DNA of 35,620 bases from a virus (taxonomy: Duplodnaviria > Heunggongvirae > Uroviricota > Caudoviricetes): the IMG/VR virus record IMGVR_UViG_3300029643_000041; one strand, written 5' to 3'. Below are positions 1,589-26,515 of the stretch, one piece after another. The position numbers were made by a program, and so were the translations under genes. Position 1 is the stretch's first letter, and every line of letters starts with the position of its first letter. Below the pieces are notes generated by a model that was not told where the DNA came from, made no database searches, and was given only the letters and a program-made list of their open reading frames with translations.

Positions 1589-2070
1589 GACAGAAGCCCT
1601 CCCACCGTTTTACTGATATCGCTTAAGGCAGATGTTGCCGTTCCCTGCAGATTATTCAGCTGCGCACTGAGATCACCGAACATATCGGACAGGGATTCAT
1701 CCACCCGTTTGAGCAACAGGGTGAACTCAATCCGGCGCGGCATACCGTCGCGGAAAAACTCCGTTTTAGTCTGATTCAGTCCCTCAATCACATACATGCC
1801 ATAAATCGTGCCGCTGCCTTCAATCAGGGGCCATGCTTTCCCCTGTTCTGCCATCTGCTCCAGTGCCAGCAACGACAGCCTGCCGCCTGTTATCTCCGGC
1901 ATAAGAACACCGGAAAGCGTCAGCATGTCGTTGTCCGGTCCCAGAAACTGCGTGGACGGACGACGGTTTACCCGACTGTTTGCCGCATGTCGCCAGCTAC
2001 GTTGATACTGCAGTTCCTGATACGGCACGGTGCGCAGCATAAACACGTACAATCCCAGTACCATCATCAT
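1585..2070 (-). CDS. U: Tail protein U
   Basis: 161 aa (P2 gpU is 159 aa); stop overlaps D start; recognised as gpU family. Confidence 0.85.
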   Translation of the reverse strand: MMMVLGLYVFMLRTVPYQELQYQRSWRHAANSRVNRRPSTQFLGPDNDMLTLSGVLMPEITGGRLSLLALEQMAEQGKAWPLIEGSGTIYGMYVIEGLNQTKTEFFRDGMPRRIEFTLLLKRVDESLSDMFGDLSAQLNNLQGTATSALSDISKTVGGLLS

Positions 2071-5000
2071 GCGTCGTATCCCCCCTGATCGCTGTAGTTA
2101 CTCCTGGCTTTTGCCTTCAGCCTGCGTTCACGTTCATCAAGCTGGCGGGCCACCTCCCGCGCAATATCCTGCGCACTTTGTCCTGGCTGTGTCTGGATGA
2201 TGATCTGCGTCGGTGCTTCAATCCGGTAAATGGGCGGCACAGTAGCTGCACGACTCACCATCGCTTCACCGCCTTTCGCGGGAAGCGCCAACGGATGCAA
2301 CGGTGGAAGCTCTGCAGGCGCGGCAGCAACGCCCATCATTCCGGCAACAACGGCAGCCAGTGCAGCTGTATTTCTCCGGCTGGTCACATTTGCCGGGCCG
2401 TTAACAATTTCCGGCCCGTTTTCACCGACGATGCCAAACTGCCCGCGCGGGATATAGCCGCCGCTGTCATACATCCCCGCAAAGCCATATCCCCATGACG
2501 GAAAACCACCCGATGGCATCATCACTTTACCGTCTGCATTCACCGTCGCAGGTTGCTGACGCGTCACGCTTTCCGGCAGTTTCGCCTTTGCAGCCTCTTT
2601 ACTGACAATGCCGAGTTTATCCAGCAACCAGGAAACGCCGGATTTCAGGGAGTCCAGCGGATGCATGACCATATTCAGCCCTTCCGCCAGTGCCTCCCCG
2701 AATCTCCGCCCCATTGCCGCTGCGCTCTGCAGTTCGGCAGAGGTCGACTTAACGGGTGTCAGCAGATCAGTAAACCAGCCCCACAGCGCCTGCACTTTGT
2801 CGCCAATCCACTGAAACACAGGCTTAAGTGGTTCGAACGCTGCACTGATGGGACCTGCCGCCGCTTTGAATCCTTCCACCACGCCACCAAGAAATGCGGT
2901 GATGGGTTGCCAGTATTTCCAGACAACCAGCGCCACGCCCGCCAGTGCAGTAACCACAAGACCTATCGGACTGAGCAGAGCGCCTAACAGACCAGATATG
3001 GCATACAGAGCAACGCGCAGCATCGCCAGCGGGCCGGATGCCAGCACTCGCAGCACCGCGCCTGCGGCTGCCAGTCCACCGCGCAGTACCGCCAGAGGAT
3101 TCATAAACATCACAGCAACAGCACGTAAAGCGGATAATCCAGACCGCAACAGTGCAACCGGCGCACCTGCTACAGTTTTCAGGACATTCCCCGTCAGTGA
3201 TGCCGTGCGGCGCAAAGACGACAACGGCGCAGTAAGTAAACCCGCTGCGTTGCCCGATGAAGCAAGCCTGCGTCGCAGCAGTGCCAGTGGAGCGCCAGCT
3301 AACCAAGACAACGCGCTGCTGGTTCGTGTTACTGCTGCCGTAACGGAAGGTAACGTTTTGATACCCAGCACAGAGAATCCCAGACGGATGACTGCCAGCG
3401 GCCCCAGCACTGCAGCCAGCGCCACCGCTAAGGTGCCGAGGCCCACGGTAACGGCAGCCACAACAGCCGCTACTTTCATCAGTGTGCCTGTCAGTTCCGG
3501 GTTAGCTTCCACCCAGCGGCGCAACGACCCCGTGATGCTTTTCACCGTGTACAGAATATCCATCAGCGGCTGGCGCAGCGTTTCGCCCAGGCTGCTGAAG
3601 GTGTTCTGCGCTCCGGTTTTGACCAGCAACCACTGAGCAGAAAGTGAGTCTTTGTTGATGTCGGATTCTTTCTGCATGGAACCGAGCGCATCATTGCCCG
3701 CTGTCAGTTTTAACTGGCGCTGCAGTTCCGGAAGGTTGTTTGCCAGTTTCGCCGCGTCATCTCCAAACTCTTTACCAAACAACATGGTCATGGCAGACAG
3801 ACGCTTATCCTGCGGCAGTGCGTTCACCTTCTCCAGCACACGCTGGATAGTTCCCATCGCATCCTTCGTCATCTGCTTTTCAATCACTTCAGGATTGAGT
3901 TTCAGCAGATTCATCCCTTCAAAGAAACTCTTGCTCTGCATGGTGGCAATGGACAATTCACGCACCATCGCGTTTGCTGCACTGGCTGCAACCTCCGGCG
4001 CAGCGCCCAGTGTCAGGAAGGTGGAACCCAGCGCCGCCGCTTTACGATAATCCAGACGGTCAGCCACACCGCCCAGACGTTGCATGACATCAATGATGTC
4101 TGCCCCTTTCGACATGGCGTTATCATCCAGATAGTTCAGCGCATCACCGAGCTGTTCAATATTGCGGGTAGGGATTTTGTAGAGCTGGGCGATTTTCCCC
4201 AGACTTTCTGACAGTTCATCCGCTGGCAGCTCAAAGGCTGTTGCAGCCTTTGCTGCCGTACTGGCGAAGGCCAGCAGGTCACGTTTCTGGTCTTCCCAGC
4301 TGTCGTCAGGATTTGCGACGTTCATGCGCGCACCACCTTCAACCAGTGCGGCAAAGTCCACAGCACCGTTTTCCATCGGCAACTGTTCGCTGGCAGCCTT
4401 GATGGCATCCTGCATTTCGTAAAAACGCGCAGTGCGGTTGCCATTATCATCACGCAGACCATTGACCTGCTTTGCCACACCTTTCATGGCATCTTCCATG
4501 CTGGTATAGCTTTTTACTGCTGCCATCACTGGCGCACCCATTGCCAGCCCTGCAGCCGTGGTAGTGGCTCCGGCTCCTGCAATGCGATCGCGCACTTCAA
4601 GCCGTCTTGAGTATTGTTCTCTGGCAGCGTTCATCCGTGCCTGTTGTTCACCCAGACGTTTAAGTGCTTTTTGCTGGCCCTCCAGTGCCTGCCTTGTTTC
4701 TTCAGCATTTTTCTTAAGTTCTCGCTGGGCACTACTGAGTTGTCTGGTATCAATCCCTGATTCTTTAAGTGCCTGACGTTGTCTCTGGACCGCCCCCAAC
4801 AAGCCGTTATAGGTCTGCTGAAGTTCCTGTACTCGTGTTTTGGCCTGACTGAATAACTTTGCCTGCGCGGCGGTTGGCCTGTTAGTGGCAGCAAATTGTG
4901 TGGCGAGTTTTGCCGCCTCTTCGCGGGCTGCGTTCAGGTTGTTGGCTGTTATGGCTAGTTGCGAGCGCGTCTTGCGAAATTCATCAATTCTGCCAGCCTG

Positions 5001-5144
5001 CTTATTCAGTTCTTTGAGGCTGTTTCGGGTATTCTGAATTGCGCCAGCCAGCTCTTTCGAACTGGCCTGTGCAGCACGGAATGGGCGGGTGAGTTTGTCA
5101 ACCGCATTAAGAATGACCTGCAGGCGCAGGTTATTATCACTCAT
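2067..5144 (-). CDS. T: Tail tape measure protein
   Basis: 1025 aa with a coiled-coil-rich N-terminus and Ala/Gly/Leu-rich hydrophobic repeats; sits between E/E' and U. Longer than P2 gpT (815 aa). Confidence 0.9.
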   Translation of the reverse strand: MSDNNLRLQVILNAVDKLTRPFRAAQASSKELAGAIQNTRNSLKELNKQAGRIDEFRKTRSQLAITANNLNAAREEAAKLATQFAATNRPTAAQAKLFSQAKTRVQELQQTYNGLLGAVQRQRQALKESGIDTRQLSSAQRELKKNAEETRQALEGQQKALKRLGEQQARMNAAREQYSRRLEVRDRIAGAGATTTAAGLAMGAPVMAAVKSYTSMEDAMKGVAKQVNGLRDDNGNRTARFYEMQDAIKAASEQLPMENGAVDFAALVEGGARMNVANPDDSWEDQKRDLLAFASTAAKAATAFELPADELSESLGKIAQLYKIPTRNIEQLGDALNYLDDNAMSKGADIIDVMQRLGGVADRLDYRKAAALGSTFLTLGAAPEVAASAANAMVRELSIATMQSKSFFEGMNLLKLNPEVIEKQMTKDAMGTIQRVLEKVNALPQDKRLSAMTMLFGKEFGDDAAKLANNLPELQRQLKLTAGNDALGSMQKESDINKDSLSAQWLLVKTGAQNTFSSLGETLRQPLMDILYTVKSITGSLRRWVEANPELTGTLMKVAAVVAAVTVGLGTLAVALAAVLGPLAVIRLGFSVLGIKTLPSVTAAVTRTSSALSWLAGAPLALLRRRLASSGNAAGLLTAPLSSLRRTASLTGNVLKTVAGAPVALLRSGLSALRAVAVMFMNPLAVLRGGLAAAGAVLRVLASGPLAMLRVALYAISGLLGALLSPIGLVVTALAGVALVVWKYWQPITAFLGGVVEGFKAAAGPISAAFEPLKPVFQWIGDKVQALWGWFTDLLTPVKSTSAELQSAAAMGRRFGEALAEGLNMVMHPLDSLKSGVSWLLDKLGIVSKEAAKAKLPESVTRQQPATVNADGKVMMPSGGFPSWGYGFAGMYDSGGYIPRGQFGIVGENGPEIVNGPANVTSRRNTAALAAVVAGMMGVAAAPAELPPLHPLALPAKGGEAMVSRAATVPPIYRIEAPTQIIIQTQPGQSAQDIAREVARQLDERERRLKAKARSNYSDQGGYDA

Positions 5145-5627: not shown

Positions 5628-6143
5628 TCAGAGGCCGAGTGCGTTGCGGTGCGCTTCCATCAGGTCCACACCGTCCACAATTTCCACCATGTTGATAAGG
5701 TCCACTTCATAGAGCACCTCACCATTGATGGTCAGCTTCGCGTAGCTGTTGGTACTGGTCACTTTGGTGGTGTTGCTTTCGCCCGTCTTCCACTCACCAG
5801 AGTCAACTTCTTTGTGACGTCCACGCACCACAAGCTCCACGGCCTGCACTTCCCCGGTATCGTCACGCTGGATAGAGCCGGTAAAGCGCAACTGGATGCC
5901 ATCCACCGTGGCTTTGCCCATCTGCTTAAACAGCAGCAGTTCAGTACCACCAATGGAAAATTCTGTGTCCAGCGCACTGTCATCAAGCCCCAGATCCACA
6001 TCCACTGCACCTGGCATTCCGCCGCCGCGATACTTCTCATATTTGCGGGTGAATTTCGGCAGCGTCAGCGACTCTACGATCCCCTGCCAGTTGTTCCCGT
6101 CGTTAAACAGGTTCAGATGTTTTAATTTGCGTGGTAAAGCCAT
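5628..6143 (-). CDS. FII: Tail tube protein FII
   Basis: 171 aa (P2 FII is 172 aa), immediately downstream of FI. Confidence 0.9.
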   Translation of the reverse strand: MALPRKLKHLNLFNDGNNWQGIVESLTLPKFTRKYEKYRGGGMPGAVDVDLGLDDSALDTEFSIGGTELLLFKQMGKATVDGIQLRFTGSIQRDDTGEVQAVELVVRGRHKEVDSGEWKTGESNTTKVTSTNSYAKLTINGEVLYEVDLINMVEIVDGVDLMEAHRNALGL

Positions 6144-6152: not shown

Positions 6153-7325
6153 TTACGCGCTGACCTGGCTGGCAAAATTCACCAGATACTGATCGGTGAT
6201 GCGCTGGCGCAGCATCAGATTTTCAAGTGGCGGCACTGGCGTGTAGTCGTAGTCGATGGTGAGCTTCCCGGCTTTCAGCGTGTCTTTATCGTTCACCGAC
6301 TCGTCCAGCCAGCAATCACCACCAATGAGATAGCCCTGACTGACCAGGCTGCGCATTTTGGCGCGGATACCTTCGATAATGTCGCGGGCCAGCGACTGAT
6401 TCAGCGGTTTGTCCACCGCCCACATGTGCGCTTCTGCCATCGTGTCCATCAGCACCTGCGCCGTGCGGGTGTAGTTTTCGAAGGCAAAGAGCGGATCATC
6501 GCTCAGACAGCGGGAACCCCAGAAGCGAAAACCATCCTTGCGCACAAGCGTGGTGACGTCGTTCTGGTTCAGCAGACCTGCATCGGTTGCCGGGTCCTGC
6601 AGATCCCAGAACACATCTGCAGAAATTCCGGTGACACCGTTCACGCCCACGTTGGACAGGCTTTTGTGCCATCCGGTTTGCTCGTCAATTTTGGCGCGCA
6701 GACCAAGCGCACGGGCGGTGGCATATGCCGTTGCTTCGGCATTCAGCACAGTGTCCCAGCCAGTAAAGTCAGGCCAGATCAGCATCCCTTCGCGCTGGCT
6801 AAAGTTTTCACGGTAAGTGATCGCCTCCTGTACCGTCTTGCAGCCATATGCTGACAGGTAAGCAAATCCACGCAGGCTTTGCGCCACGCTCAGCAACTCA
6901 GTAGCTACCGCCTTGGTGTCGTGGCCTGGCACGCCGAGAATGCGCGGTTTAACGCCGAGCTGTGACTGGGCAGATAACAGGGCTTTCATACCTGTTTTTT
7001 TACCTTCAGCAGTCACTGCGCCGATGATATTGGTCGTGGTTTCGTCTTCCGTTTCACCCTGCGGCACACGCACAACAACGGTCACGGGTTTTGCCTGGTC
7101 AGCGATGGCATCCAGCGAACGGGCCAGCGTACCGGACTCACCCGCTTTACCGCTGGCAGTAAGCACATCAGTGATCAGCACGGGTTTATTAAGAGGGAAC
7201 ATTTTTGCATCGGCATCATCGCCCGTGCAGACCATGCCCACGATGGCGGTGCTCACCGTAGTAATGGATCGAGTGCCTTCGTTGACTTCAACAACGCGCA
7301 CCCCGTGGTGGTAATCCTGAGCCAT
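6153..7325 (-). CDS. FI: Tail sheath protein FI
   Basis: 390 aa (P2 FI is 396 aa); recognised as contractile sheath family. Confidence 0.9.
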
Positions 7326-7401
7326 AGTGGCGAACCTCCTGATTGGATTAGGCTTCGCCCTATGTTGAAGTGATTGTGCCTGACAAACAGCTAAGCGCAG
7401 T

Positions 7402-7419
7402 TGTACCGTTATTCACACA
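7402..7419. promoter_or_regulatory. Candidate Ogr-dependent late promoter dyad (TGT-N12-ACA) upstream of FI
   Basis: tgtaccgttattcacaca, 77-94 nt upstream of the FI start; same TGTACCG...CACACA pattern as the dyad upstream of P. Confidence 0.45.
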
Positions 7420-7467
7420 AAATGACGGTATTTGTCTGCTTTCAGGGATAATCAAAATAAAGCTGAG

Positions 7468-8034
7468 TCAGGGAGATTCATTGCTCTTATTTGCCGGAAA
7501 TTTTCGATAAATGGTAGAAACGCCTACATCAAAAATCAGTGCAATACGCTGTCTTGATTCTCCGGCCTCGAGTAAACGCCCAATCTGTGCCCACTGTTCG
7601 CTGGTCAACTTAGGACGGCGTCCACCTACTCTGCCTTTAACACGAGCTGCAGCCAGCCCTGCCCTGGTACGTTCAACTATCAGTTCGCGTTCCATTTCAG
7701 CCAGGGCACCCATGACATGAAAAAAGAAACGGCCCATTGGGGTACTGGTATCAATACTGTCAGTCAGGCTTCGGAAATTCACGCCACGCTGGCGCAACTC
7801 TTCTATCAGCGTAACAAGATGCCGCATACTGCGCCCCAACCTGTCCAGCTTCCAGACAACCAGCGTGTCTCCTGCCGATAGTGTTCTGAGCAGTTTTTTC
7901 AGTCCCGGTCGGTCGGACTTCGTGCCGCTGATTTTATCCTCAAAAATCCGCTCGCATCCTGCGCACTCCAGCGCGTTACGCTGCAATTCCGTGTTCTGGT
8001 CATTTGTTGACACGCGTACATAGCCAATAAGCAT
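7468..8034 (-). CDS. Serine recombinase, DNA invertase of the Gin/Hin/Pin/Cin family
   Basis: 188 aa; MLIGYVRVSTNDQ...DTLVVWKLDRLGRS...MGRFFFHVMGALAEMERELIVERT...GGRRPKL...GVSTIYRKF closely resembles Hin/Gin, including the catalytic Ser region and C-terminal HTH. Confidence 0.9.
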   Translation of the reverse strand: MLIGYVRVSTNDQNTELQRNALECAGCERIFEDKISGTKSDRPGLKKLLRTLSAGDTLVVWKLDRLGRSMRHLVTLIEELRQRGVNFRSLTDSIDTSTPMGRFFFHVMGALAEMERELIVERTRAGLAAARVKGRVGGRRPKLTSEQWAQIGRLLEAGESRQRIALIFDVGVSTIYRKFPANKSNESP

Positions 8035-8091
8035 GAGTATCCCCCTGAATAAAAACCGGAGATGATGCCTGTTGCCCGTTATCTCTGCATT

Positions 8092-8115
8092 TTCATAAAC
8101 GTTGGTTTAGGAGAA
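8092..8115. repeat. Inversion crossover site 1 (gix/hix-like)
   Basis: ttcataaacgttggtttaggagaa; its reverse complement shares a 14-bp half-site (ttctcctaaaccaa) with the site at 9881-9906; lies next to the invertase gene. Confidence 0.65.
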
Positions 8116-8460
8116 GCGGCGAAAAGGGATGTGGGCACAGGAGATAATCAGATACCGGATATGTCTTTCTGGTCTTCCGCATCGGGTGGCGTTAATTTCC
8201 CTAATGGATTCCAGATGCGATTCGGTGCTATCGCTGGTAATGGTGGAAAATTATTTTCTACGCCATTTACAAATCAGTGCTATGGCATTGTTTTCGGACA
8301 AACATATGGAGCCAACTACTGGATGTTCAGCCCGATGTACAGAGCATCTGATCTGAGTAATACCAGTTTTGCATTCATTAACAAAGCCTGGTCTGGAATT
8401 CCGGGGACAGGTGCTCAGGACGCTGGTGAATCAGTTTTTTATATTGCAGTAGGGTATTAA
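8104..8460 (+). CDS. Alternative, currently unexpressed tail-fibre C-terminal segment
   Basis: Open frame from the crossover site encoding GLGEAAKRDVG...NGFQMRFGAIAG...; would join the constant part of H (…LSYLGLGE) in frame after inversion. Confidence 0.6.
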   Translation, partial: GLGEAAKRDVGTGDNQIPDMSFWSSASGGVNFPNGFQMRFGAIAGNGGKLFSTPFTNQCYGIVFGQTYGANYWMFSPMYRASDLSNTSFAFINKAWSGIPGTGAQDAGESVFYIAVGY

Positions 8461-8461
8461 T

Positions 8462-8905
8462 ATGGAAATGGTTTATAGCGCCTCAAATAATAGTTTTTTC
8501 GCTAAAAATGATGTGGCGAAATATGAACAGGCCGGATGGGAACTTGCTGATATTGTCGAAGTGACATATGACACTTACCTGGAATTTATTGAAGACAGAA
8601 CGTTGCAAGGGAAAGTACGCATCGCGGGTGATGATGGCCTTCCCACCTGGGGGGAAATTCCACCGCCAACTCATGAGGAACAAATTGCCGCAGCCGAACT
8701 GGAAAAGCAGCAATTGATTAATCAGGTCAACGAATACATAAACAGTAAGCAATGGCCTGGTAAAGCAGCGATTGGTCGCCTAAAAGGTGAGGAACTGGCG
8801 CAATATAATTTGTGGCTGGATTATCTGGACGCACTGGAACTGGTTGATACCTCCAGTGCTCCAGATATTGAATGGCCTACGCCTCCGGCAGTTCAGGCCA
8901 GATGA
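8462..8905 (+). CDS. Alternative tail fibre assembly protein
   Basis: 147 aa; C-terminus (…ELVDTSSAPDIEWPTPP) parallels the C-terminus of G (…TATDTSTAPDVIWPELP); converges on G with a 29-bp 3' overlap. Confidence 0.75.
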   Translation: MEMVYSASNNSFFAKNDVAKYEQAGWELADIVEVTYDTYLEFIEDRTLQGKVRIAGDDGLPTWGEIPPPTHEEQIAAAELEKQQLINQVNEYINSKQWPGKAAIGRLKGEELAQYNLWLDYLDALELVDTSSAPDIEWPTPPAVQAR

Positions 8906-9479
8906 CGTCCGGCGCTGTGCTGGTATCTGTTGCCGTCACCGCATCAATGTAATCCAGCACAGCGTTAAGTCGGGTGTTTTCTGTCTGCGTCAGCTTCCGC
9001 CCGGCCTGCAATTTCAGTTGAATCAGACTAATGGAAGCCATTGCAGTATCAATCAGTGACTGACGCTGTGCTTCTGCCGCGTCTAGTGCGGCGCTATGCT
9101 GTGCCTCAGTATCTGTCACCCATTTCTCACCATCCCATTCATCGTATGGCGTTAACGGGGCGATAGTGGTTGTATTTTCAGGGTAATCACCTGGTGCTGT
9201 GATTTCTTTTGATTCTCCTGTTTCGGTGCTAAAAACGATTTCACCGCGATGGTCTGGCACATATTCCCATGAGTTAAAATCTGCAGAACGGCAGATTGCA
9301 TAACCAGCTTTACGTGTAACTGGTGAATCTAAACAGGAATATGCAGGGATACCGACACCAATGGCAAGATATTCATTTGAAGTAGAAATATATTCCCGAG
9401 TTTTACCATCATAGTTATAGACGGTAATATTCCCCGCCTTCGTGGCAATAAGCTCGCTATTTAATACGGCGTTATCCAT
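8877..9479 (-). CDS. G: Tail fibre assembly protein G
   Basis: 200 aa directly downstream of H; carries the conserved Tfa C-terminal motif. Confidence 0.85.
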   Translation of the reverse strand: MDNAVLNSELIATKAGNITVYNYDGKTREYISTSNEYLAIGVGIPAYSCLDSPVTRKAGYAICRSADFNSWEYVPDHRGEIVFSTETGESKEITAPGDYPENTTTIAPLTPYDEWDGEKWVTDTEAQHSAALDAAEAQRQSLIDTAMASISLIQLKLQAGRKLTQTENTRLNAVLDYIDAVTATDTSTAPDVIWPELPEA

Positions 9480-10942
9480 TATGCAGCCCTTACGATATAG
9501 TTAAATGCAATATTTCGTGGACGGGTTTCGCTCCCGCCATATGATGATGTAAATCCCGAATATGCCCGGTGTCCCGCATCCGTCGTATTAGCCCAGGAAG
9601 GACCGCTAGAAGTATAGATGACCCCATTGTAATCATGGCCGTGTGCCTCAATGCTCCCGTCCTGAGCAGACAGGAGAGTCCGTCCTGAATCAATTCCTCT
9701 TCCATCATCCCACCCACGAATGAATTCGCCGCGTAAATCTGGCAATTTATTTGTCGGATAAACTTTTGCCAGTTCCGGATACTCTTCGGCAGAAAAAGCT
9801 GCACCGTTGCATTTCAGCCAGCCTGTTGGCGGTGTGACTGAAGGCCACGGAACAGGCACACCTACGGGTAATGCAGAGCCTTCTCCTAAACCAAGGTATG
9901 AGAGAAGACCAGCGACATCCTTTCCACTCAAATTAGTCAGCGTATTGTCCAGCGGTTGTTTACCTGCCAGCGCATTAAGCATTGTCGTGGCAAAGTTCGG
10001 ATCATTCCCCAGTGCCGCCGCCAGTTCGTTCAGTGTATCCAGTGCAGCAGGTGCTGACCCCACCATTGCTGCAATTGCCGATTTCACAAAAGCCGTGGTG
10101 GCAATCTGTGTATTGTTAACCGACTGTGCGGCAGTGGGGGCTGTTGGCGTTCCGGTGAGTGCCGGACTTGACAGCGGCGCTTTCAGTGCCAGCGCATTGT
10201 TAATGGTGGTACTGAATTTCGGATCATTGTTAATGGCTGCGGCTAATTCTTTCAGCGTGTCCAGCGTGGCTGGCGCACCATTAATCAGGGCCGTCAGTGC
10301 CGCCTGAACAAACGCGGTGGTCGCAACCTGCGTGGTGTTATTCCCTGCCGCTGGCGTTGGCGCTTTTGGTGTCCCGGTAAACGTCGGACTTTCTTTGGGT
10401 GCATACTGTGAATGCGGGTCCGGTGCGGCAAGATGTTTTGCCATCTGATCATCCACGTACACCTTCAGCTCCAGTACCTTGTCATCCACATACTTGCGGG
10501 TTGCCAGCACTACGGCAGGGTCGATTTTCAGGGTGATATTGTCCGTGCTGCTGGTAATCAGCACCATGCGCACGGTCTGGGTACGCCCGCTGCCTTCAGC
10601 CAGTTGCGGTTTATAGCTTTCCGGGCAGTTCCCCACGGCAATCAATGCCCCTGACTCATCAAACAGGCCCACTTCACGTATCCACCAACCGCCCTCGTTT
10701 TCAGGGATCACCTGTTCAGCAATAATCTGGCTGCTGTTCTGCGGGTCGATATAGAGCATATTCAGCGCAGCCCGGCGTTTCTCATTTACCAGTGCCGTCT
10801 GCTTTGCGTCCGGCGTCGGCAATGCTCCGCCGCCATCGCCCACCGCCATATGGGTAATTTTTAGCGGCACACCGAGCGCGGCGGCGCTGGCAAGTTTCGC
10901 CGCGCCAATATCCGTCAGCAGGGTATAAAATTTTGTGCTCAT
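9479..10942 (-). CDS. H: Tail fibre protein H
   Basis: 487 aa; N-terminus MSTKFYTLLTDIGAAKLA typical of P2 H; internal tandem fibre repeats; C-terminal WLKCNGAAFSAEEYPELAKVYP...DLRGEFIRGWDDGRGID receptor-domain motif. Confidence 0.9.
   Translation of the reverse strand: MSTKFYTLLTDIGAAKLASAAALGVPLKITHMAVGDGGGALPTPDAKQTALVNEKRRAALNMLYIDPQNSSQIIAEQVIPENEGGWWIREVGLFDESGALIAVGNCPESYKPQLAEGSGRTQTVRMVLITSSTDNITLKIDPAVVLATRKYVDDKVLELKVYVDDQMAKHLAAPDPHSQYAPKESPTFTGTPKAPTPAAGNNTTQVATTAFVQAALTALINGAPATLDTLKELAAAINNDPKFSTTINNALALKAPLSSPALTGTPTAPTAAQSVNNTQIATTAFVKSAIAAMVGSAPAALDTLNELAAALGNDPNFATTMLNALAGKQPLDNTLTNLSGKDVAGLLSYLGLGEGSALPVGVPVPWPSVTPPTGWLKCNGAAFSAEEYPELAKVYPTNKLPDLRGEFIRGWDDGRGIDSGRTLLSAQDGSIEAHGHDYNGVIYTSSGPSWANTTDAGHRAYSGFTSSYGGSETRPRNIAFNYIVRAA
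9881..9906. repeat. Inversion crossover site 2, inside H
   Basis: ttctcctaaaccaaggtatgagagaa encodes LLSYLGLGE in the H frame; inverted relative to site 1. Confidence 0.65.
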
Positions 10943-11544
10943 GGATTCACTCTCATTGTGTCAATAACATGGACCGCCCCGCCTTCATGCGCGGTGCCAC
11001 CGGAAATAATCGTTTCGTTGATATACGGATAGATCGTGATTTCTTCGCCAATATAGCTGGCGGCTCCCACCCAATGCGGGCCGCTGGTCTGCAGATTGAT
11101 GGACATGCCGATCATGTGGCGGCTACATGGTTTGGCATCGCTTATCAGTCGCTCAAGTTCCAGATAGGTATCTTCAGTGATGCCCTGGTCCTGCACGCCG
11201 ATATCCAGGCGAAACGTGCCCGGTGCCTCTCCGGTTTGCCACCACTCAATAATGCGGATCAGAAAGCCGAACGGCTCCACCACCCGCCGCACGGCACTGG
11301 TGGTCCCTTTATGCTGATGAATATAAAAAGCATCCTTCACCACCTGGCGCTTGACGCTTTCTGTCCAGCCCTCGTCCCAGCGATCCACAGAGAACGCCCA
11401 GGCGAGATAAGGCAGGAAACTGACCGGACAGGTTGCCGGATTCCACAAGTCACGAAGCGGCACCTGCAGATCAGAAATCCCGCTGCAGGTTTGCGCCAGT
11501 CGGCGCTCCAGTGGTGTTGAACCCGGTGGCAGCAGACTATTCAT
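10939..11544 (-). CDS. I: Baseplate assembly protein I
   Basis: 201 aa between J and H; recognised as gpI family. Confidence 0.8.
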   Translation of the reverse strand: MNSLLPPGSTPLERRLAQTCSGISDLQVPLRDLWNPATCPVSFLPYLAWAFSVDRWDEGWTESVKRQVVKDAFYIHQHKGTTSAVRRVVEPFGFLIRIIEWWQTGEAPGTFRLDIGVQDQGITEDTYLELERLISDAKPCSRHMIGMSINLQTSGPHWVGAASYIGEEITIYPYINETIISGGTAHEGGAVHVIDTMRVNP

Positions 11545-12445
11545 CCGTTCCTCCGTTGGTTACGCTCCACTGCGTACATGATGCCGCCTGTGTTTTGTTC
11601 AGGACCACATCCGCCAGAGGAGAAGCCAGCTCCACACGCTGCACACCCTCAACATGCAGGGCGGCAAAGATGGCGCTACGGCGAATATCCCGACCAAGAC
11701 GCGTCTGACTGGCGATGTACTTCTGCAGGCTGGCTTTTGCCGCTGCCATTACCGGCTCTGCTTCCGGTCCCGGATAGAGAAAAATGGTGGCTTCCACGCG
11801 ATACGGGATGATTTCTGCGCTGCGAACCGTAAGACGGTCAGCCACCGGGCGGACGTTCTCACTGTTCAGAGCTTTTTCCACCACGTCCAGCAGGTCTTTT
11901 TCTGCAGTTCCATCGCCTTCGCGGCTAAGGACTGTCAGCACCACCTCTGCAGGTGCCGGGCTGGTTGCACTGGCATCCGCCACCCGACCGTCGGCGCTTC
12001 GGGCATGAAATTCATAAGCTGCAGTTGGCCCCGCAACTGAAAGCCCTTCAAAGGCTGCAGGCACACGCAGGCGTAACGCTTCATCGCTTTCCATCACAGC
12101 TGCAACGGGCGGCACAGCATCATTATCAGCAGGCGTCACCGTCAGGCGTGTCACGTTGTAGTTGGCAGCGAGCTGGTCAAGATCGCCGCCCATCGCGTAA
12201 GCCACCATCACCGCCTGCGCGGCTTCGTTAATGCGCTGGCGCAGAAGCAACTCACGGTAAGCGTTCTCCTGCAACAATTTAGTGACGGGTTCAGATTCCA
12301 GTTCCAGCGTGCGGATCACGGCTTCCTGCTCATCTTTCGGATGAAGCGCCACAAATTCTGCCTTGCGTTCGGCAAGCAGTGTCTCAAAGTCCGGCACATC
12401 CACAATCTGCGGTGCAGGCAACTGCGAAAGGTCAATCACTGCCAT
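11537..12445 (-). CDS. J: Baseplate protein J
   Basis: 302 aa from the internal Met (MAVIDLSQLP), matching P2 gpJ length; the track ORF starts 13 codons upstream at a GTG. Confidence 0.8.
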   Translation of the reverse strand: MAVIDLSQLPAPQIVDVPDFETLLAERKAEFVALHPKDEQEAVIRTLELESEPVTKLLQENAYRELLLRQRINEAAQAVMVAYAMGGDLDQLAANYNVTRLTVTPADNDAVPPVAAVMESDEALRLRVPAAFEGLSVAGPTAAYEFHARSADGRVADASATSPAPAEVVLTVLSREGDGTAEKDLLDVVEKALNSENVRPVADRLTVRSAEIIPYRVEATIFLYPGPEAEPVMAAAKASLQKYIASQTRLGRDIRRSAIFAALHVEGVQRVELASPLADVVLNKTQAASCTQWSVTNGGTDE

Positions 12446-12791
12446 TCTCTGCTCCTGTTGATACGGAAAGGGACACAGGCACACCGTTATTCCGCCGCCC
12501 GGTCAGCTCCACCACCATAGAACCGTCAAAGTTGCTGTTGATGGTGATGGAATCCAGCGTCAGCCGTGGCTCCCAGCGACTCAGCGCCACATACACTGCC
12601 GACATGACCTGCAGGCGTAATGCCGGATTTTGTGGCTGATCTATCAAAACCGACAGGAGGGAACCATATTCCCGGCGGGCAATGCGGCTACCCTGCGGTG
12701 TCAGCAGAATGTCCCGCACCGACTGGCGCAGATGATCAATATCAGTAATGACTTTGCCGCTGGTATTGTTCATCCCGCTATAAAGCGTCAT
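12432..12791 (-). CDS. W: Baseplate wedge protein W
   Basis: 119 aa (P2 gpW is 115 aa), position between V and J. Confidence 0.8.
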   Translation of the reverse strand: MTLYSGMNNTSGKVITDIDHLRQSVRDILLTPQGSRIARREYGSLLSVLIDQPQNPALRLQVMSAVYVALSRWEPRLTLDSITINSNFDGSMVVELTGRRNNGVPVSLSVSTGAENGSD

Positions 12792-13366
12792 ACCGGGCCT
12801 CCGGTTGTATCGCCGCCTTTCAGGACGCCAGTATGCTGATGCGCATCAACCACAATCCCGTTAGAGCTCATCGCTCCGCCGCCCTGGGTAACGCCACCAT
12901 TGATCACCACTTCGCTGTTAATACGCGTGCGGTCAGCCTCCAGTACAAACTCACTGGTTTTCATGGTGATGTTGTCAGCGGCCTCAATGACCATTGATTT
13001 GATGCCCCTGACATACCAGCGTCCGGTGGCGGGTTCGTATTCAAACCAGCCACCGTCAGGATGTTCTGTCACGCAGGCGTCCGCCGACGTCGACGGTGGC
13101 GCGAACTGATTCGAATAGATGGCGGGTAACGCAAAGGCGGTTTCCAGATTGCCGCCCAGACTCAGCAGCACCACCTGCTCACCTTCCGATGGTCGCCACC
13201 ATGTGCGGGCATTCCCGGCACGCAGCGTCAGCCAGCTGATCCAGTTGGTTTCAAGCTCGCCCGTTTTCACCCGGCAAAGCCAGTTTTCCCTGTCCACTTC
13301 GGTGACTACCCCAGTGCGGATCAGGTTGGTGATAAGGCGCATGATTTCGGTTAATTGTGCGTTCAT
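12788..13366 (-). CDS. V: Baseplate spike protein V
   Basis: 192 aa; first gene after a late promoter dyad; recognised as gpV family. Confidence 0.8.
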   Translation of the reverse strand: MNAQLTEIMRLITNLIRTGVVTEVDRENWLCRVKTGELETNWISWLTLRAGNARTWWRPSEGEQVVLLSLGGNLETAFALPAIYSNQFAPPSTSADACVTEHPDGGWFEYEPATGRWYVRGIKSMVIEAADNITMKTSEFVLEADRTRINSEVVINGGVTQGGGAMSSNGIVVDAHQHTGVLKGGDTTGGPV

Positions 13367-13412
13367 AGGGAAAGGTTGCCATCAGGGGAAGAAAGGCGGC
13401 AGTGCTGCAACT

Positions 13413-13430
13413 TGTATCAGTGCTGATACA
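13413..13430. promoter_or_regulatory. Candidate late promoter dyad (TGT-N12-ACA) upstream of V
   Basis: tgtatcagtgctgataca, a near-perfect palindrome 47-64 nt upstream of the V start. Confidence 0.45.
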
Positions 13431-13434
13431 AAGA

Positions 13435-13881
13435 TCACCCCGCCAGCCATTGCAGAATCATGTCGCGGGTCATTGCCTCAACATCATCATTTACACCCAG
13501 AAGGCGACGCTCTGCGTAACGGACCTCCGGTCCTTTGCGGCTGACGCGATCACGTAAGCCGTAGTGATGAACACGGGCAATGCGCTGTACCTTGCCTTCA
13601 AACTGCACGCTGGCAGAGTCGGCGCTGGCGGCAGTTTTCAGGTATTTTGTGGTGCGCAGCTTTGTAAACATCTGACGTTTGATGCGCCCCTTTTTGCTGC
13701 GTGCTGTTACCCTGCGCGGCTCATAACTGCTGCCATCAGGATTGCGCTGCATCCTGATGTTCTGCTGCTGTGTCCGGCGCAGTTCCTGCGCCAGCTGGCG
13801 CATCATGCGGCTTCTTGCGGCTGGCTCCAGATTCGCCAATAATGCACTCAGCCAGTTGTCCACCTTCTGCAGTTCAGCCAC
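13435..13881 (-). CDS. S: Tail completion protein S
   Basis: 148 aa (P2 gpS is 150 aa). Confidence 0.85.
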   Translation of the reverse strand: MAELQKVDNWLSALLANLEPAARSRMMRQLAQELRRTQQQNIRMQRNPDGSSYEPRRVTARSKKGRIKRQMFTKLRTTKYLKTAASADSASVQFEGKVQRIARVHHYGLRDRVSRKGPEVRYAERRLLGVNDDVEAMTRDMILQWLAG

Positions 13882-14326
13882 GTTTCACCGTCCACATTTC
13901 TTCAGGTTCATCAGGTTCCGCTACCGCTTCAACGTTCGACACACTGCCGTCAGTGCTGACTAGCACACGCTCCGTCAGTTGCAGGTTAAGGCTGATATCA
14001 CAGACATCGTTGCGCAGAATATCCACCTCAAAGGTGAATAGCTTTTCCCGTAACGCCGGGTTATTGATGGCATCGGGCTGGTTATCCCGCAGCCACAGCA
14101 AAACCGGGGCCATCAGCAGATTCTGGTCGCCGCTGAAATCCTCAATCACCACGTTCAGGGTGTAGCGGTACTCCCATGACATGGAGCTGGCCCCCGTGGC
14201 AACCAGCGAACCGTTATCCACAAACAGATGCAGTTTGTCCGGGTTATTGCGGACATAAGGCACCGCTTTATTGAGGGCGTGGCGCAGGGATTGTGGTTTG
14301 TTCACTGTTTCGCTCCTGACACGCAA
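13874..14326 (-). CDS. R: Tail completion protein R
   Basis: 150 aa; an alternative GTG start with an AGGAG Shine-Dalgarno lies 7 codons in (about 14305). Confidence 0.8.
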   Translation of the reverse strand: MRVRSETVNKPQSLRHALNKAVPYVRNNPDKLHLFVDNGSLVATGASSMSWEYRYTLNVVIEDFSGDQNLLMAPVLLWLRDNQPDAINNPALREKLFTFEVDILRNDVCDISLNLQLTERVLVSTDGSVSNVEAVAEPDEPEEMWTVKRG

Positions 14327-22202: not shown

Positions 22203-22886
22203 TTAAGGCATTCTATTCTCAAAAACATGCTTTATCGCAGTGGTAAAGCATCTATCTTTTACATTCTTTTTAAACTCATCAAAGACCATAGATCTAACAT
22301 CTTCAATTTCACATCCTGATTCAATAAGCTGAGATGCACATCCGACCAGTTCCTTTATTAATGTCATGCTTAATTCTATTGCACGTCTTCTTTCCGCCTT
22401 GACTCCTCCTGAGGACGGGTTTAAGTTAAATACTCTTAACGTAACCTCTGCCATTTTGTGTTCTTTCTCATTCAAGCCTTCTCTAATATGAACATCACCA
22501 TTTTCCAAAAAATGGAAAAAAACATCTGGATTTTGTCTATCAGCTTTAATTAAATCATCATCGTTATATTTTTGCTTATCCTTATAAAACCCACACCTTT
22601 GCGGCTCACCACATGAGCCAAACAAATTAGACCACTCGAAAGTTAAATTTTTGTAATAACTTTTCCTGTAAAAATGTTCAATATGCCTCTCAACTTTATT
22701 TTTGCCACCACTTTTATGATGCTCTATTTTTTTCTCGCAATAAGCACATAATTTACCTTGCATTTTTATTATTTCTTCCCATATTTCTTTTTTATCATTT
22801 GATGATAGGGAATTCCAATCATCCCTCCTATAGTCAAATTTATTAAGAACGGAAGGCCCTGGCATTTGCCTAGATAGATATTTCAT
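22203..22886 (-). CDS. HNH endonuclease, Septu PtuB-like retron effector component
   Basis: 227 aa; CAYCEKKIEHH...VERHIEHFYRK...CGEPQRC HNH/zinc motif; start overlaps the ATPase stop (ATGA); strongly AT-rich. Confidence 0.8.
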   Translation of the reverse strand: MKYLSRQMPGPSVLNKFDYRRDDWNSLSSNDKKEIWEEIIKMQGKLCAYCEKKIEHHKSGGKNKVERHIEHFYRKSYYKNLTFEWSNLFGSCGEPQRCGFYKDKQKYNDDDLIKADRQNPDVFFHFLENGDVHIREGLNEKEHKMAEVTLRVFNLNPSSGGVKAERRRAIELSMTLIKELVGCASQLIESGCEIEDVRSMVFDEFKKNVKDRCFTTAIKHVFENRMP

Positions 22887-24517
22887 TTTACATCCTTACT
22901 TCCAGAAAAGTGCTGATTTATCTTATTTTTGAACTCCAAAACAGATATAAGATCATCACACTCTTGAACTAAAGGATGGTCTAATCCGAAATGTTTAATA
23001 ACTTTTTCTCTTAACAAAAGAGCCTCGTCACTGCTATAACGATTAAGCTCAACCAATTTTTTATATTCTTCAAGCCAACCATTTTCTTTAGTAGAGGGTA
23101 TAGGATCAGTTCTCATTCCATATAAAAGTGCATCCTGATTACTAACACCTTTTATTTGATAGTCGGGGTGAGACACTATCAAATCATTAACACCATCTAC
23201 TTCCACTTCCTGTAGAATACGCACTGAACGAGAGCTAACAGTGGATAAAACCTGTGGGCTATGGGTAGTAATTACAAATTGAACATTTGGGAATGTAGAT
23301 GTCAAACGCTCAATAATTGTCTGTTGCCATTGCGGATGCAAATGCAAATCAATTTCATCAATTAAAACAATCCCATATCCCAATAGAGGATTAGATAAAT
23401 TTGGATTAAGTAAAATTAAACGTCGAGCCAAATCACCAACTAAAGTAAATATAGTTTTCTCACCTTGAGACAACTGTTGAATATCTAATTCAACCTCTCC
23501 TTTTTTAAGGATAATCTTATAATCATCATCACCATAAACAAGCTTAATCCACTGAAATTCAGGCAAGAACTTTAGAATGGTATTTATAACACTATCATAA
23601 AGTGATACTGCATTATTAAACTTATGTTCTCCTGATTGCAGAGATTTCATGTAGTTCAATTTTTCTTTAAGCGAAAGCTCTAAACCTTTTATAACTGTTG
23701 AATCAATATTATCAATCGCAGATAGTTGAGTTAATGTTGCTTTCAAACTCTGAATATCTGAAAATAACGCATTGATTGTCGTTTGTGACTCACTCAATTT
23801 CTCTTGTGAAGCTCTGTTATGAAGAAATACAAGCCATTGAAAAAAATCGGTAAAATCATTTCTGTCAAACTCGATTTCATCATACACATCGAATTTTGAC
23901 CATACAGTTTTAGTTTTAGCATTTTTTCTTTTCCTATCAACCCCACCGCCTATATAAGAACGCGCAATAGAATAATATGCCATCAAAGGCAAGCTTGCAT
24001 TATCAACATATTTATTCACAAGTCTATAAATACTTGCAAGTTTTTTTATCTCCAACAATTCATTATTTCTAGAATAATATGCCCCCTCTTTCGCTTTAGT
24101 AATCAAAATACTGGTATTAAAGTCCTTGAGTTTTATATTTGCATCAATTGATGCATACTCAACATCAACAGAGTTATTAACTTCATGGCTTTTAATATAA
24201 GTACCAGGCTTACTCTCCTTTTCAATATTTGATCTCAACCAACTCAAAACAATTGCTATTGCATCCAAAATAGTGCTTTTACCGAATCCGTTATCCCCGA
24301 CAAAAACAGTCAAATCATCTTCTAAAGAAATCTGTAGTTCTCTTATCCGTTTAAAATCATGTATACCTATTTTATTTAAATGAAACTTACTCTCATTTAA
24401 AGTAGATATTAGCTTTTGAAGCTCAACAGACTCCTTCAAATAATCCTCGTTTATCACATGTGATTCCAACTCTAAAAAATCAACATAGCAAGTCTCTAAA
24501 TTCATTTTATTTATCAT
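22883..24517 (-). CDS. P-loop ATPase, Septu PtuA-like retron effector component
   Basis: 544 aa; Walker A VFVGDNGFGKST, Walker B VLIDEIDLHLHP, then ITTHSP; translationally coupled to the RT upstream and the HNH downstream. Confidence 0.8.
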   Translation of the reverse strand: MINKMNLETCYVDFLELESHVINEDYLKESVELQKLISTLNESKFHLNKIGIHDFKRIRELQISLEDDLTVFVGDNGFGKSTILDAIAIVLSWLRSNIEKESKPGTYIKSHEVNNSVDVEYASIDANIKLKDFNTSILITKAKEGAYYSRNNELLEIKKLASIYRLVNKYVDNASLPLMAYYSIARSYIGGGVDRKRKNAKTKTVWSKFDVYDEIEFDRNDFTDFFQWLVFLHNRASQEKLSESQTTINALFSDIQSLKATLTQLSAIDNIDSTVIKGLELSLKEKLNYMKSLQSGEHKFNNAVSLYDSVINTILKFLPEFQWIKLVYGDDDYKIILKKGEVELDIQQLSQGEKTIFTLVGDLARRLILLNPNLSNPLLGYGIVLIDEIDLHLHPQWQQTIIERLTSTFPNVQFVITTHSPQVLSTVSSRSVRILQEVEVDGVNDLIVSHPDYQIKGVSNQDALLYGMRTDPIPSTKENGWLEEYKKLVELNRYSSDEALLLREKVIKHFGLDHPLVQECDDLISVLEFKNKINQHFSGSKDVK

Positions 24518-25452
24518 TATTTGTTTCCTTCCATCAGGAACTTAGTTATTAACTCACAACCATATTTTTTTTGTAACCTTAATAAAAAATCACCCTCCAA
24601 ATAATTTGCAAACGCAATCATCCCTTTGGTTTTATTTATTTCTTCGGAAGATAAGAGTCCCAAAGAATATTTATGAATCTTTGCAAACAGCATCCTTTTA
24701 CGATCGCGACCAATTGATAAATTGCCCTGAGGTGTAAGTGTTACACCAGTCACGTGCCGATTATGAGCCATCGATGTAAAAATTGTTTTAGATTCATTGA
24801 TTGATAGACCGGGAACATGGAGCGACAACATTTTTTTTACCACCTTAGGAACCCTGCACAATATATCCTTAATATTAGTTGAAAAAGTTATATCATCTGC
24901 ATACCTTGAATAAGTGATACCATTGTTACGGCACCAATCATCAAGACTCTTGTCAAAGTCATACATAACAAAATTACTAATAAATGGTGAGCTTGGCGCC
25001 CCTACACTTAATATCAACGTTGTACTTCTCTTTTTTCCCGGACGCCAAAAAAGCAAATTACGTAGGGTGTTCTCATCAAATGAATCCAATTTCAGCCCTG
25101 TGTTCTCAAGTTTCGAGAAAAATATATCAGGTTTAATTTTGTTAAAGAAGTTCTGAAAATCCATTTTAAGAATATAATTATTATCTTTATGCAACAATGC
25201 ATTATCTTTAATACTTTTTTTATATTCATATGCCATTGCCTTATGATGAACAGGCAGCTTTGGCTGTAGCAAAGATACTATAAATCTCTGTACGTTTTTT
25301 AGTTCCTTTGTCGGCTGAGCTATCACCCGAAAACCTGCGCCACGTTTAGGAATATAATAAACTTTATATTTTTTGGGGGCCTCATTTAAAAGTAATTGGA
25401 AAGCTAATCTATTATAATTAAACTTACTGATAATTTTAGAAGTTAGTTGCAT
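24517..25452 (-). CDS. Retron-type reverse transcriptase
   Basis: 311 aa; ILKMDFQNFF, SVGAPSSPFISNF, YSRYADDITF (YxDD box) and the retron-typical VTG triplet (HNRHVTGVTL); AGAGGGG Shine-Dalgarno before the ATG; preceded by a structured non-coding region. Confidence 0.85.
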   Translation of the reverse strand: MQLTSKIISKFNYNRLAFQLLLNEAPKKYKVYYIPKRGAGFRVIAQPTKELKNVQRFIVSLLQPKLPVHHKAMAYEYKKSIKDNALLHKDNNYILKMDFQNFFNKIKPDIFFSKLENTGLKLDSFDENTLRNLLFWRPGKKRSTTLILSVGAPSSPFISNFVMYDFDKSLDDWCRNNGITYSRYADDITFSTNIKDILCRVPKVVKKMLSLHVPGLSINESKTIFTSMAHNRHVTGVTLTPQGNLSIGRDRKRMLFAKIHKYSLGLLSSEEINKTKGMIAFANYLEGDFLLRLQKKYGCELITKFLMEGNK

Positions 25453-25700
25453 ATAACCCCTCTTAAAACCAAAGCGCCATGCAACTTTACATAGCGCTTT
25501 GACTCTTCACTAAAGACAGCGAAAGACACAGATTTCTCCTTCGCATATCTGCCCCGGGCAGGGATGCGAAGGAGAAATCTGTGTCTTTCGCAACCCTAAA
25601 CCGGACAATAAATTTAAGCCTGGCTAATCACCCGGCTGGAACCAATGTTCCTACACTAAAGAGCGTAATGATTTTAATGAACAAATAGATATAAGGCAAG
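25453..25700 (-). ncRNA. Candidate retron msr-msd non-coding RNA (limits approximate)
   Basis: Non-coding stretch directly 5' of the RT on the same strand; 28-bp perfect inverted repeat (arms 25519-25546 and 25564-25591, 17-nt loop) consistent with an msd stem; smaller hairpins at 25638-25651 and 25461-25490. Flanking a1/a2 repeats were not resolved by eye. Confidence 0.5.
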
Positions 25701-25704
25701 GCGC

Positions 25705-25735
25705 GCGCTCGTATCCCCGCCACGCCTGCCCGCTT
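25705..25735. other. cos-like GC-rich motif (candidate cohesive-end site)
   Basis: Minus-strand ggcgtggcggggatacgag matches 14 of 19 positions of the P2 cohesive end GGCGAGGCGGGGAAAGCAC as I recall it; lies between the Tum-module terminator and the retron. Confidence 0.3.
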
Positions 25736-25770
25736 TATGTAGTGGTTTTCATGCACCTGCATGATCTACG

Positions 25771-25797
25771 CAAAAGCCCGCCAGTTCTGGCGGGCCT
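25771..25797 (-). terminator. Rho-independent terminator closing the SOS/Tum-like operon
   Basis: Minus strand gcccgccag-aa-ctggcgggc followed by ttttg. Confidence 0.6.
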
Positions 25798-25930
25798 TAG
25801 CAAAAACGATCCTCAAACGATCATGCGATCTCATGCGGCATAGACATGCACTACAGAGCTAACGCCTCGCAAGGGCTCGTTGTTCAACCTTGCTGACGCC
25901 AGAAACAAGTTCAGACGCCAGCAACGTTTC

Positions 25931-26164
25931 TTAATGCAGCCAGCTGTCGTCTTCCCACACCTTCTGCATAATTTTCATCACTTGTTTTCTTTCTTCGTCC
26001 AGTTGCAGTCCGGTCAGTTCCACACCGTTAGAGCTACCTTTGCGGATACGAATTACCGTTTTGGGATACAGGGGGCGCAGATTGCGGTAAAGCTCGGATT
26101 CAAGGGCGTCCAGTGTAGACTGGCTAATCTTCTGCTCTTTATCGATCATTATTTCAATGCGCAT
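25931..26164 (-). CDS. DinI-family protein (Tum-like antirepressor C-terminal module)
   Basis: 77 aa from the internal Met with a GAGGTG Shine-Dalgarno; MRIEIMIDKEQKISQSTLDALESELYRNL...VWEDDSWL parallels E. coli DinI (MRIEVTIAK...). Confidence 0.8.
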   Translation of the reverse strand: MRIEIMIDKEQKISQSTLDALESELYRNLRPLYPKTVIRIRKGSSNGVELTGLQLDEERKQVMKIMQKVWEDDSWLH

Positions 26165-26174
26165 AAAAGTCACC

Positions 26175-26363: not shown

Positions 26364-26405
26364 CTTTCCTCCTATGACACCAAAGCAATACTGTATATAT
26401 AACCA

Positions 26406-26421: not shown

Positions 26422-26515
26422 TATATAATAATCTTACTGATGTAAAACGTTTTTTTACGCTCATCAGCCTGATATGCCTGGTATTATTAAGAGCACGAAT
26501 TGTTAACCCGCGTAA

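Follow-up and report, generated by a model that had tools for sequence, protein, structure and literature searches.

Inversion of tail fibre genes by a dedicated recombinase is a shared feature of phages Mu (G segment, Gin) and P1 (C segment, Cin). In both, a serine invertase adjoins the segment, which has a 26-bp site at either end. One of these sites falls within the fibre gene, at an LGL-E motif, and alternative C-termini, with their cognate chaperones, can follow a constant N-terminus; an enhancer occupies the 5' part of the invertase gene. The Fin invertase of Fels-2, reportedly described by Kutsukake et al. in 2006, is a parallel that we do not use as evidence.

Inversion at the Z/fun position of P2-like prophages is also already published, and cassettes of this type are common and already annotated. 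In P2-like prophages of enteropathogenic Escherichia coli (EPEC), inversion was detected by sequencing cultures, and one of these prophages, with three sites, works as a shufflon (PMC4272514). Inversion was confirmed by PCR in a P88-type prophage of ST131 (bioRxiv 10.1101/2022.05.07.487787), and the Z/fun hotspot of P2 has been noted to contain an invertase whose neighbouring genes are inverted (bioRxiv 10.1101/2024.10.15.618418). Carotovoricin Er, a P2-like tailocin with a contractile tail of the P2 type, is reported to change its target range when its fibre gene undergoes inversion (Nguyen et al. 2001, as cited in PMC4272514), although it is a bacteriocin from Pectobacterium, not a phage.

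The locus reported here was found in a stretch of 35,620 nucleotides, hereafter the window. It is very probably a site-specific inversion cassette of the Pin type (Gin/Cin/Hin family), occupying the Z/fun slot of a P2-like prophage. It has all the elements listed above for Mu and P1, the enhancer being represented by a homologous, putative stretch, but at about 3.0 and 4.2 kb the segments of Mu and P1 exceed it in size, their invertases are less similar and their phage backbones different. Its nearest relative is the Pin/P-segment cassette of e14, a cryptic prophage of E. coli K-12, and not Mu or P1. The e14 P segment measures 1797 bp, compared with 1789 bp here; its left site and the start of its invertase are separated by much the same distance as here, about 54 bp; its tfaP and tfaE genes, likewise convergent, overlap by 29 bp as well; and the StfE-like tip and TfaE are common to both cassettes. 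However, e14 is a defective lambdoid remnant, whereas here the cassette belongs to a P2-like prophage that looks complete, and is joined to an entire H fibre of the P2 type. Moreover, the StfP tip of e14 is gp53-like, while the second tip of our locus is of a rare type. Finally, the TfaE module, which occupies the silent position in the e14 K-12 reference (stfP-tfaP / tfaE-stfE-pinE), is here in the expressed position.

Genomic context and invertase

The late genes of the window follow the order V-W-J-I-H-G / (Z/fun slot) / FI-FII-E-T-U-D, as established from the map of open reading frames, the annotations of relatives and comparison with the P2 reference. A Phage_GPA protein encoded at 26516-28888 likewise fits P2-like phages (Peduoviridae). 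The P2 reference carries fun(Z) between G and FI, with no invertase there, which agrees with the preliminary description of this DNA, in which the locus was placed at the Z/fun position and P2 was said to have no such switch. Other P2-like prophages, those of EPEC E2348/69, the P88-type in ST131 and those in RefSeq E. coli genomes such as SF-468 and AH19D088, carry the cassette at the corresponding place, with the fibre genes on one side and FI, the sheath gene, on the other, and with the same invertase and the same logic. A scan with Rfam returned RybB at the prophage edge only, and nothing in the switch. The invertase gene and the enhancer proposed within it are as follows.

7468-8034, minus strand: serine DNA invertase of the Pin/Cin/Gin/Hin group, 188 aa, with catalytic Ser9 in MLIGYVRVSTNDQ
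7945-8016, minus strand: probable Fis-dependent recombinational enhancer, by homology; nt 19-90 of the invertase gene, near its start

The Hin/Gin-like serine invertase that had been proposed to lie beside the segment is borne out by its domains, Pfam Resolvase (6.3e-53) and HTH_7 (5.7e-16), an N-terminal catalytic domain and a C-terminal helix-turn-helix that fit the invertase subgroup of small serine recombinases. It aligns over its full length (residues 1-184) with Gin in the PDB (3uj3/4m6f; E 2e-92), and is 84% identical to PinE of e14, 77% to Cin of P1 and 73% to Gin of Mu, with Ser9 and 110 invariant columns common to the four proteins. With the invertase of strains that are found in both orientations it shares 183 of its 188 residues (97%).

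Nucleotides 19-90 of the gene are homologous to the enhancer annotated at nt 19-90 of P1 cin, with 56 of 72 bases identical (78%), compared with 377 of 540 (70%) for the whole gene; 61 of the 72 bases are shared with e14 pinE. One 15-mer of the form G-N13-C, at nt 71-85, is present in all four genes compared, and another, at nt 22-36, is present in the genes of the relatives except P1 cin. This similarity suggests that the stretch may bind Fis, and that recombination would depend on it.

Crossover sites

In a search of positions 6500-12500 the top-ranked inverted repeat had its arms at 8090-8116 and 9880-9906, which contain the two crossover sites and delimit the segment between them.

8090-8115: left crossover site, TTTTCATAAACG-TT-GGTTTAGGAGAA, 26 bp, central dinucleotide at 8102-8103
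9881-9906: right crossover site, TTCTCCTAAACC-AA-GGTATGAGAGAA, within H, central dinucleotide at 9893-9894, encoding LLSYLGLGE
8104-9892: invertible segment, 1789 bp separating the two central dinucleotides, of which 1763 bp (8117-9879) lie inside the repeat arms

The preliminary description had given these sites as 8092-8115 and 9881-9906, with a common part of 14 bp, and its coordinates are accurate to within two bases. The inner half-sites are identical, the exact 14 bp in common being TTGGTTTAGGAGAA, and the 12-bp half-sites fit TT.TC..AAACC; the cores, TT and AA, are complementary and the sites are inverted. Aligning the sites to known invertase sites, a check proposed at the outset, succeeded for both of them with pix, cix and gix, although the central dinucleotide of Mu gix is GA/TC and that of our sites AA/TT. 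The left site matches the pinE-proximal site of e14 at 25 of 26 bases. No further site was found within eight mismatches of the consensus in the whole window, and fifty shuffles yielded no match with six or fewer mismatches. A shufflon with multiple inversions, as in one EPEC P2-like prophage, is ruled out, given that the window has two sites only.

Fibre tips, chaperones and the product of inversion

The genes affected by the segment are listed below, together with an open reading frame on the silent side that begins outside it.

9479-10942, minus strand: tail fibre H, 487 aa, with a Phage_tail_fib N-terminal domain (3.4e-65) and a Collar domain
8877-9479, minus strand: currently expressed chaperone, TfaE-like, in the position of P2 G, 200 aa, Caudo_TAP 5.4e-32
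8104-8460, plus strand: alternative tail fibre C-terminus Sv', currently unfused, 118 aa, PHROG 1396 tail fibre 4.5e-24
8462-8905, plus strand: alternative tail fibre assembly chaperone Tfa', 147 aa, Caudo_TAP 6.1e-31, PHROG 188 1.9e-58
8062-8460, plus strand: silent-side open reading frame, 132 aa, consisting of a 17-aa leader, MMPVARYLCIFINVGLGE, from outside the segment, followed by Sv'

The H protein is constant from residue 1 to 350, followed by GLGE (351-354), which comes from the shared half-site, and by the variable tip in current use (355-487), 61% identical to StfE of e14. The LLSYLGLGE motif said to mark the junction between constant and variable parts was located at residues 346-354. 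In sequence the tips bear no relation to each other, one being of the Collar/StfE-like type and the other of the PHROG 1396 type. The latter, Sv', has no Pfam match, and is 33-55% identical to the fibre ends of SfII/SfIV/SfV and other phages as detected by tblastn; on these PHROGs and tblastn results it can be placed loosely among tail fibre ends. The chaperones differ in their relationship with e14: the TfaE-like one is 89% identical to TfaE over 200 aa, whereas Tfa' is only 57% identical to TfaP, over 105 aa.

The two chaperone genes converge and overlap by 29 bp, as previously noted, but the accompanying analogy with the Mu G and P1 C segments had to be rejected: U and U' are 28 bp apart in both phages, and the true match is the tfaP/tfaE pair of e14.

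When the segment was inverted in silico, residues 1-350 of H were joined in frame to Sv', yielding an uninterrupted 468-aa protein, H', that ends in ...FYIAVGY, and Tfa' came to lie behind H in place of the G-position chaperone. Both outcomes had been predicted in the preliminary description. In flipped genomes H' is annotated intact, as a 468-aa 'phage tail protein'.

Both orientations occur in natural isolates

The strongest support for an invertase-driven switch comes from natural isolates that carry the segment in both orientations. The prophages of E. coli SF-468 and AH19D088, which are 98% identical to the one studied here, have no mismatches in about 8.2 kb of flanking sequence, and yet their 1763-bp interiors are exact reverse complements of each other, with breakpoints equivalent to window positions 8117 and 9879, inside the repeats. 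Among complete E. coli genomes with full-length matches at 98% identity, seven have the orientation of the window and four are flipped. In addition, both orientations of a sister prophage are present within one assembly. About half of the complete E. coli genomes (about 2990 of 5426) match parts of the cassette, but the Sv'/Tfa' pair is uncommon, with 11 full-length matches among the 5426, and most relatives carry a gp53-like tip. The window itself displays one orientation, and flipping in its own strain is what its 98%-identical relatives lead us to expect.

Together with the in-frame fusion, the alignment of the sites and the presence of Ser9, these orientations support the original proposal of an invertase-driven switch of the fibre C-terminus and its chaperone. 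A single orientation combined with a dead invertase would speak against that proposal; what we found is an intact Ser9 and relatives in both states.

In the mechanism we propose, the invertase would bind the two 26-bp sites, presumably with Fis on the enhancer inside its own gene, and introduce staggered cuts of 2 bp at the matching central AA/TT; strand rotation would then flip the segment of about 1.79 kb. In the orientation seen, the late operon V-W-J-I-H would produce H(1-350) ending in the StfE-like tip, together with the TfaE-like chaperone; once the segment has inverted, H(1-350) would instead end in the other tip, of 118 aa, and be accompanied by the 147-aa chaperone. The phage coming from a lysogen population would then be of two receptor specificities, and inversion would be expected to change host range.

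Alternative explanations

It is conceivable, though in our judgement improbable, that the cassette serves the lysogen instead of, or besides, the phage. The silent-side open reading frame would in that case make a free tip that masks surface receptors, and inversion would switch a superinfection block. This frame starts outside the segment and is in frame with either tip, its leader resembles that of e14 StfE, and T2 adsorption is reportedly blocked by the chimeric StfE2 of e14, which arises when the P segment inverts (PMC12529663). However, the Shine-Dalgarno-like GGAG directly abuts the ATG of this frame, a poor spacing, and no promoter was predicted upstream of it. The leader also overlaps the crossover site and the upstream region of the invertase, so its conservation may reflect constraint on the DNA and not on the protein, and the tip differs from the gp53-like domain on which the e14 work was done. 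The prophage, moreover, looks complete, and a role in phage host range suffices to explain the cassette. We give equally little credence to a combined version, in which the switch would toggle phage host range and lysogen defence alike, a free receptor-binding protein from 8062-8460, here with a tip that lacks a Pfam match, blocking the adsorption of other phages.

Slightly less likely again is a fossil switch, whose invertase or sites have decayed, leaving the segment frozen in the orientation seen. That the window has a single orientation would fit such decay, as would the one base by which each outer half-site differs from the 98%-identical relatives that flip, and the failure to predict a promoter for the invertase. 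Yet the left outer half-site is identical to that of an e14 site known to recombine, there is no flaw in the inner half-sites or the central dinucleotides, and the invertase is full length, with all residues invariant in Pin, Cin and Gin kept and near identity to the enzymes of the flipping relatives. As for the promoter, the scan of 7200-10000, which gave the invertase gene no sigma-70-like promoter, is uninformative, because promoter and terminator predictions there were no more numerous than in shuffled sequence. The least credible origin of the two public orientations is RecA-dependent homologous recombination between the repeats, or misassembly, in place of the invertase. Homologous exchange between inverted repeats is possible in principle, and a segment bounded by repeats may be collapsed or turned round during assembly, but the perfect repeat spans just 14 bp, far below efficient RecA substrates, and the breakpoints coincide with canonical invertase sites beside an intact invertase. 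Four complete genomes, independent of one another, show the flipped state, as do sister prophages, and inversion was verified experimentally for related prophages (PMC4272514; bioRxiv 10.1101/2022.05.07.487787). On these grounds, repeat length, breakpoints, recurrence and experiments on relatives, we rejected this origin.

Implications for annotation and phage typing

Beyond correct annotation, the importance of an invertase-driven fibre switch at this locus is slight. The cassette explains why the annotation of tail fibres in P2-like prophages is inconsistent, with truncated 'hypothetical' tips and two H proteins per prophage, and why assemblies of one strain may disagree. Were the free-tip defence role true, it would extend the mechanism recently claimed for e14 StfE2 to intact P2-like prophages, which a large fraction of E. 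coli genomes contain. For phage typing and therapy, two adsorption types would be expected in lysates of such a lysogen, and the uncommon Sv'/Tfa' pair is a candidate for a new receptor specificity.

Architecture of the fibre locus

In the ORF map, the window is a P2-like (Peduoviridae) prophage whose late genes run along the minus strand, in an order that recurs in annotated relatives. The fibre locus and its surroundings are organized as follows.

488-1588, minus: D, late gene
Between D and T, minus: U, late gene
2067-5144, minus: T, tape-measure gene
Between T and FII, minus: E, late gene
5628-6143, minus: FII
6153-7325, minus: FI, sheath; the switch locus comes next
7468-8034, minus: serine invertase, 188 aa, Resolvase and HTH_7 domains
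8062-8460: ORF with in-frame ATG outside the invertible segment; 17-aa leader within 8062-8115
8090-8115: left 26-bp crossover site, TTTTCATAAACG-TT-GGTTTAGGAGAA
8462-8905, plus: alternative chaperone
8877-9479, minus: expressed chaperone
9881-9906: right 26-bp crossover site, TTCTCCTAAACC-AA-GGTATGAGAGAA
9479-10942, minus: fibre H; then I, J, W, V

P2 itself lacks such a switch, as the preliminary description held: in the P2 reference, fun(Z) occupies the interval between G and FI, and there is no invertase there.

The invertase aligns over its full length with crystallised Gin (E 2e-92), and is 84%, 77% and 73% identical to e14 PinE, P1 Cin and Mu Gin, respectively. Ser9 is kept, as are all columns invariant across these three enzymes, and only five of 188 residues differ from the invertase of flipping relatives. 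Taking the enhancer annotated at nt 19-90 of P1 cin as reference, the homologous stretch lies at 8016-7945, where 56 of 72 bases match P1. Since this is somewhat above the gene-wide level, and since two conserved positions carry recurrent G-N13-C motifs (nt 71-85 in four of four genes; nt 22-36 in all except P1 cin), the 5' end of the invertase gene likely contains a Fis-dependent enhancer, judging by sequence.

The top inverted repeat of the region (8090-8116 and 9880-9906) corresponds to the two crossover sites, which share inner half-sites and core (14 bp) and differ in their outer half-sites. Both align with gix, cix and pix drawn from reference genomes; of the 26 bases in the left site, 25 agree with the pinE-proximal site of e14, and AA/TT forms the core, as in cix and pix. 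Shuffled sequence gave no match to the crossover consensus at six or fewer mismatches. No further site was found within eight mismatches elsewhere in the 35.6-kb window, so that the switch is a simple one with just two sites.

The right site sits in H, where it codes for LLSYLGLGE (residues 346-354). Inversion in silico at the central dinucleotide gave an open 468-aa fibre, H', composed of H residues 1-350 and 118 residues from 8104-8460, with the 147-aa alternative chaperone gene beginning one base past it. Both chaperone genes encode Caudo_TAP, and their 3' ends share 29 bp. The alternative tip has no match in Pfam and belongs to a PHROG of tail fibres; its identity to the fibre ends of collected phages amounts to only 33-55%. 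It is uncommon in E. coli, where most prophages have a gp53-like tip at this position. The invertase, inverted sites, LLSYLGLGE junction and two Tfa genes proposed beforehand were all found, and the anticipated in-frame fusion, with the second chaperone gene behind it, is what the in-silico inversion gives.

Both orientations in natural genomes

Because the window shows one orientation only, public genomes served as a natural experiment on flipping. Seven complete E. coli genomes contain the native 2.8-kb sequence at full length (98% identical), and four others contain its in-silico flipped version, also at full length and with equal identity and bit score. Between E. coli SF-468 and AH19D088, all neighbourhood proteins are identical; across 10 kb of DNA, the flanks have no mismatches, and the 1763-bp interior of one strain is exactly the reverse complement of the other's. 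The switch points correspond to window positions 8117 and 9879 and lie within the repeats. Annotations of the flipped genomes list the predicted 468-aa H' as an intact tail protein and place the 147-aa chaperone next. A single assembly also has a sister prophage (around 93% identical) in either orientation, one copy on the chromosome and one on a 29.5-kb extra contig; the inverted block is likewise bounded by the crossover sites.

That assembly, GCF_001874485.1 (E. coli O25b:H4), holds one P2-like prophage twice with the fibre segment opposite (L007 3803-5665 versus L008), the second copy being a linear 'extrachromosomal' contig with frameshift errors. This likely reflects a culture of mixed orientation, or excised phage DNA assembled separately. 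Neither outcome set out in the preliminary description as refuting the switch was therefore seen: both orientations exist among relatives, the catalytic Ser9 is intact, and the sites align with gix-type sites.

Relationship to known invertible segments

The cassette is most aptly regarded as a P segment of the e14 type that has been grafted onto a fibre of the P2 type. Its expressed chaperone shares 89% identity with TfaE and its expressed tip resembles StfE; the alternative chaperone shares 57% identity with TfaP. Moreover, the tfaP/tfaE overlap in e14 is exactly 29 bp (extract L005 2518-2546), whereas the convergent chaperone genes of Mu (extract L003 4003-4032) and P1 (extract L006 6319-6348) are 28 bp apart, so that the overlap had been wrongly likened to Mu G and P1 C. 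Overlap versus gap provides a simple marker of Pin-type and Gin/Cin-type cassettes.

The ORF at 8062-8460 runs from outside the segment into whichever tip is unfused, and PGAP annotates it in relatives of both orientations. Its leader, MMPVARYLCIFINVGLGE, resembles the e14 StfE leader, MPFACYFFIFINVGLGE, and an analogous e14 chimera, StfE2, has recently been claimed to block T2 adsorption (PMC12529663). By analogy, the product might protect the lysogen; however, its start codon has a poor ribosome-binding context, promoter prediction gave nothing upstream of it, and conservation of the leader may merely reflect overlap with the crossover site, making such a role very improbable.

In our view, the mechanism is very probably site-specific inversion of the Pin type, by which the fibre tip and its chaperone are exchanged together. 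The preliminary observation is confirmed, and its interpretation, after minor corrections, is supported. The finding holds, although such switches had been described before: coexisting orientations were reported from sequenced clonal cultures for two P2-like EPEC prophages, one of them a simple two-state switch like that of the window (Goldberg et al., PMC4272514); PCR confirmed reversible inversion between fibre genes in an invertase-bearing P88-type prophage of ST131 (bioRxiv 10.1101/2022.05.07.487787); and a phage-hotspot survey often found a DNA invertase in the P2 Z/fun hotspot, with adjacent genes inverted (bioRxiv 10.1101/2024.10.15.618418). Of 5426 complete E. coli genomes, 2990 contain matches to parts of the cassette, and it is routinely annotated in them.

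Other features of the prophage

The prophage flank has matches in nearly all complete E. coli genomes, and the host is therefore E. coli or a close relative. A RybB sRNA gene at one edge (23-101, plus, 105 bits) and a phage integrase gene at the other (33381-34490, plus), followed by a TetR-family gene (34969-35535, minus), suggest integration next to or into rybB.

A three-gene cargo (22203-25452, minus) occupies the P2 old/tin hotspot, adjoining Q, the portal gene.

24517-25452, minus: reverse transcriptase, best PADLOC model RT_I-A (4.9e-131)
22883-24517, minus: PtuA-like ATPase
22203-22886, minus: PtuB/HNH-like protein

This trio resembles a type I-A retron defence system; Rfam gave no msr/msd RNA match in the gap of around 1 kb at 25453-26515.

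Beyond V (around 13250-14100), the window passes directly to the next late gene (13435-13881), and relatives otherwise 96-98% identical carry a 1.9-kb AAA-family ATPase gene in the same slot (L001 10243 onward). This position is another cargo slot that varies between sister prophages.
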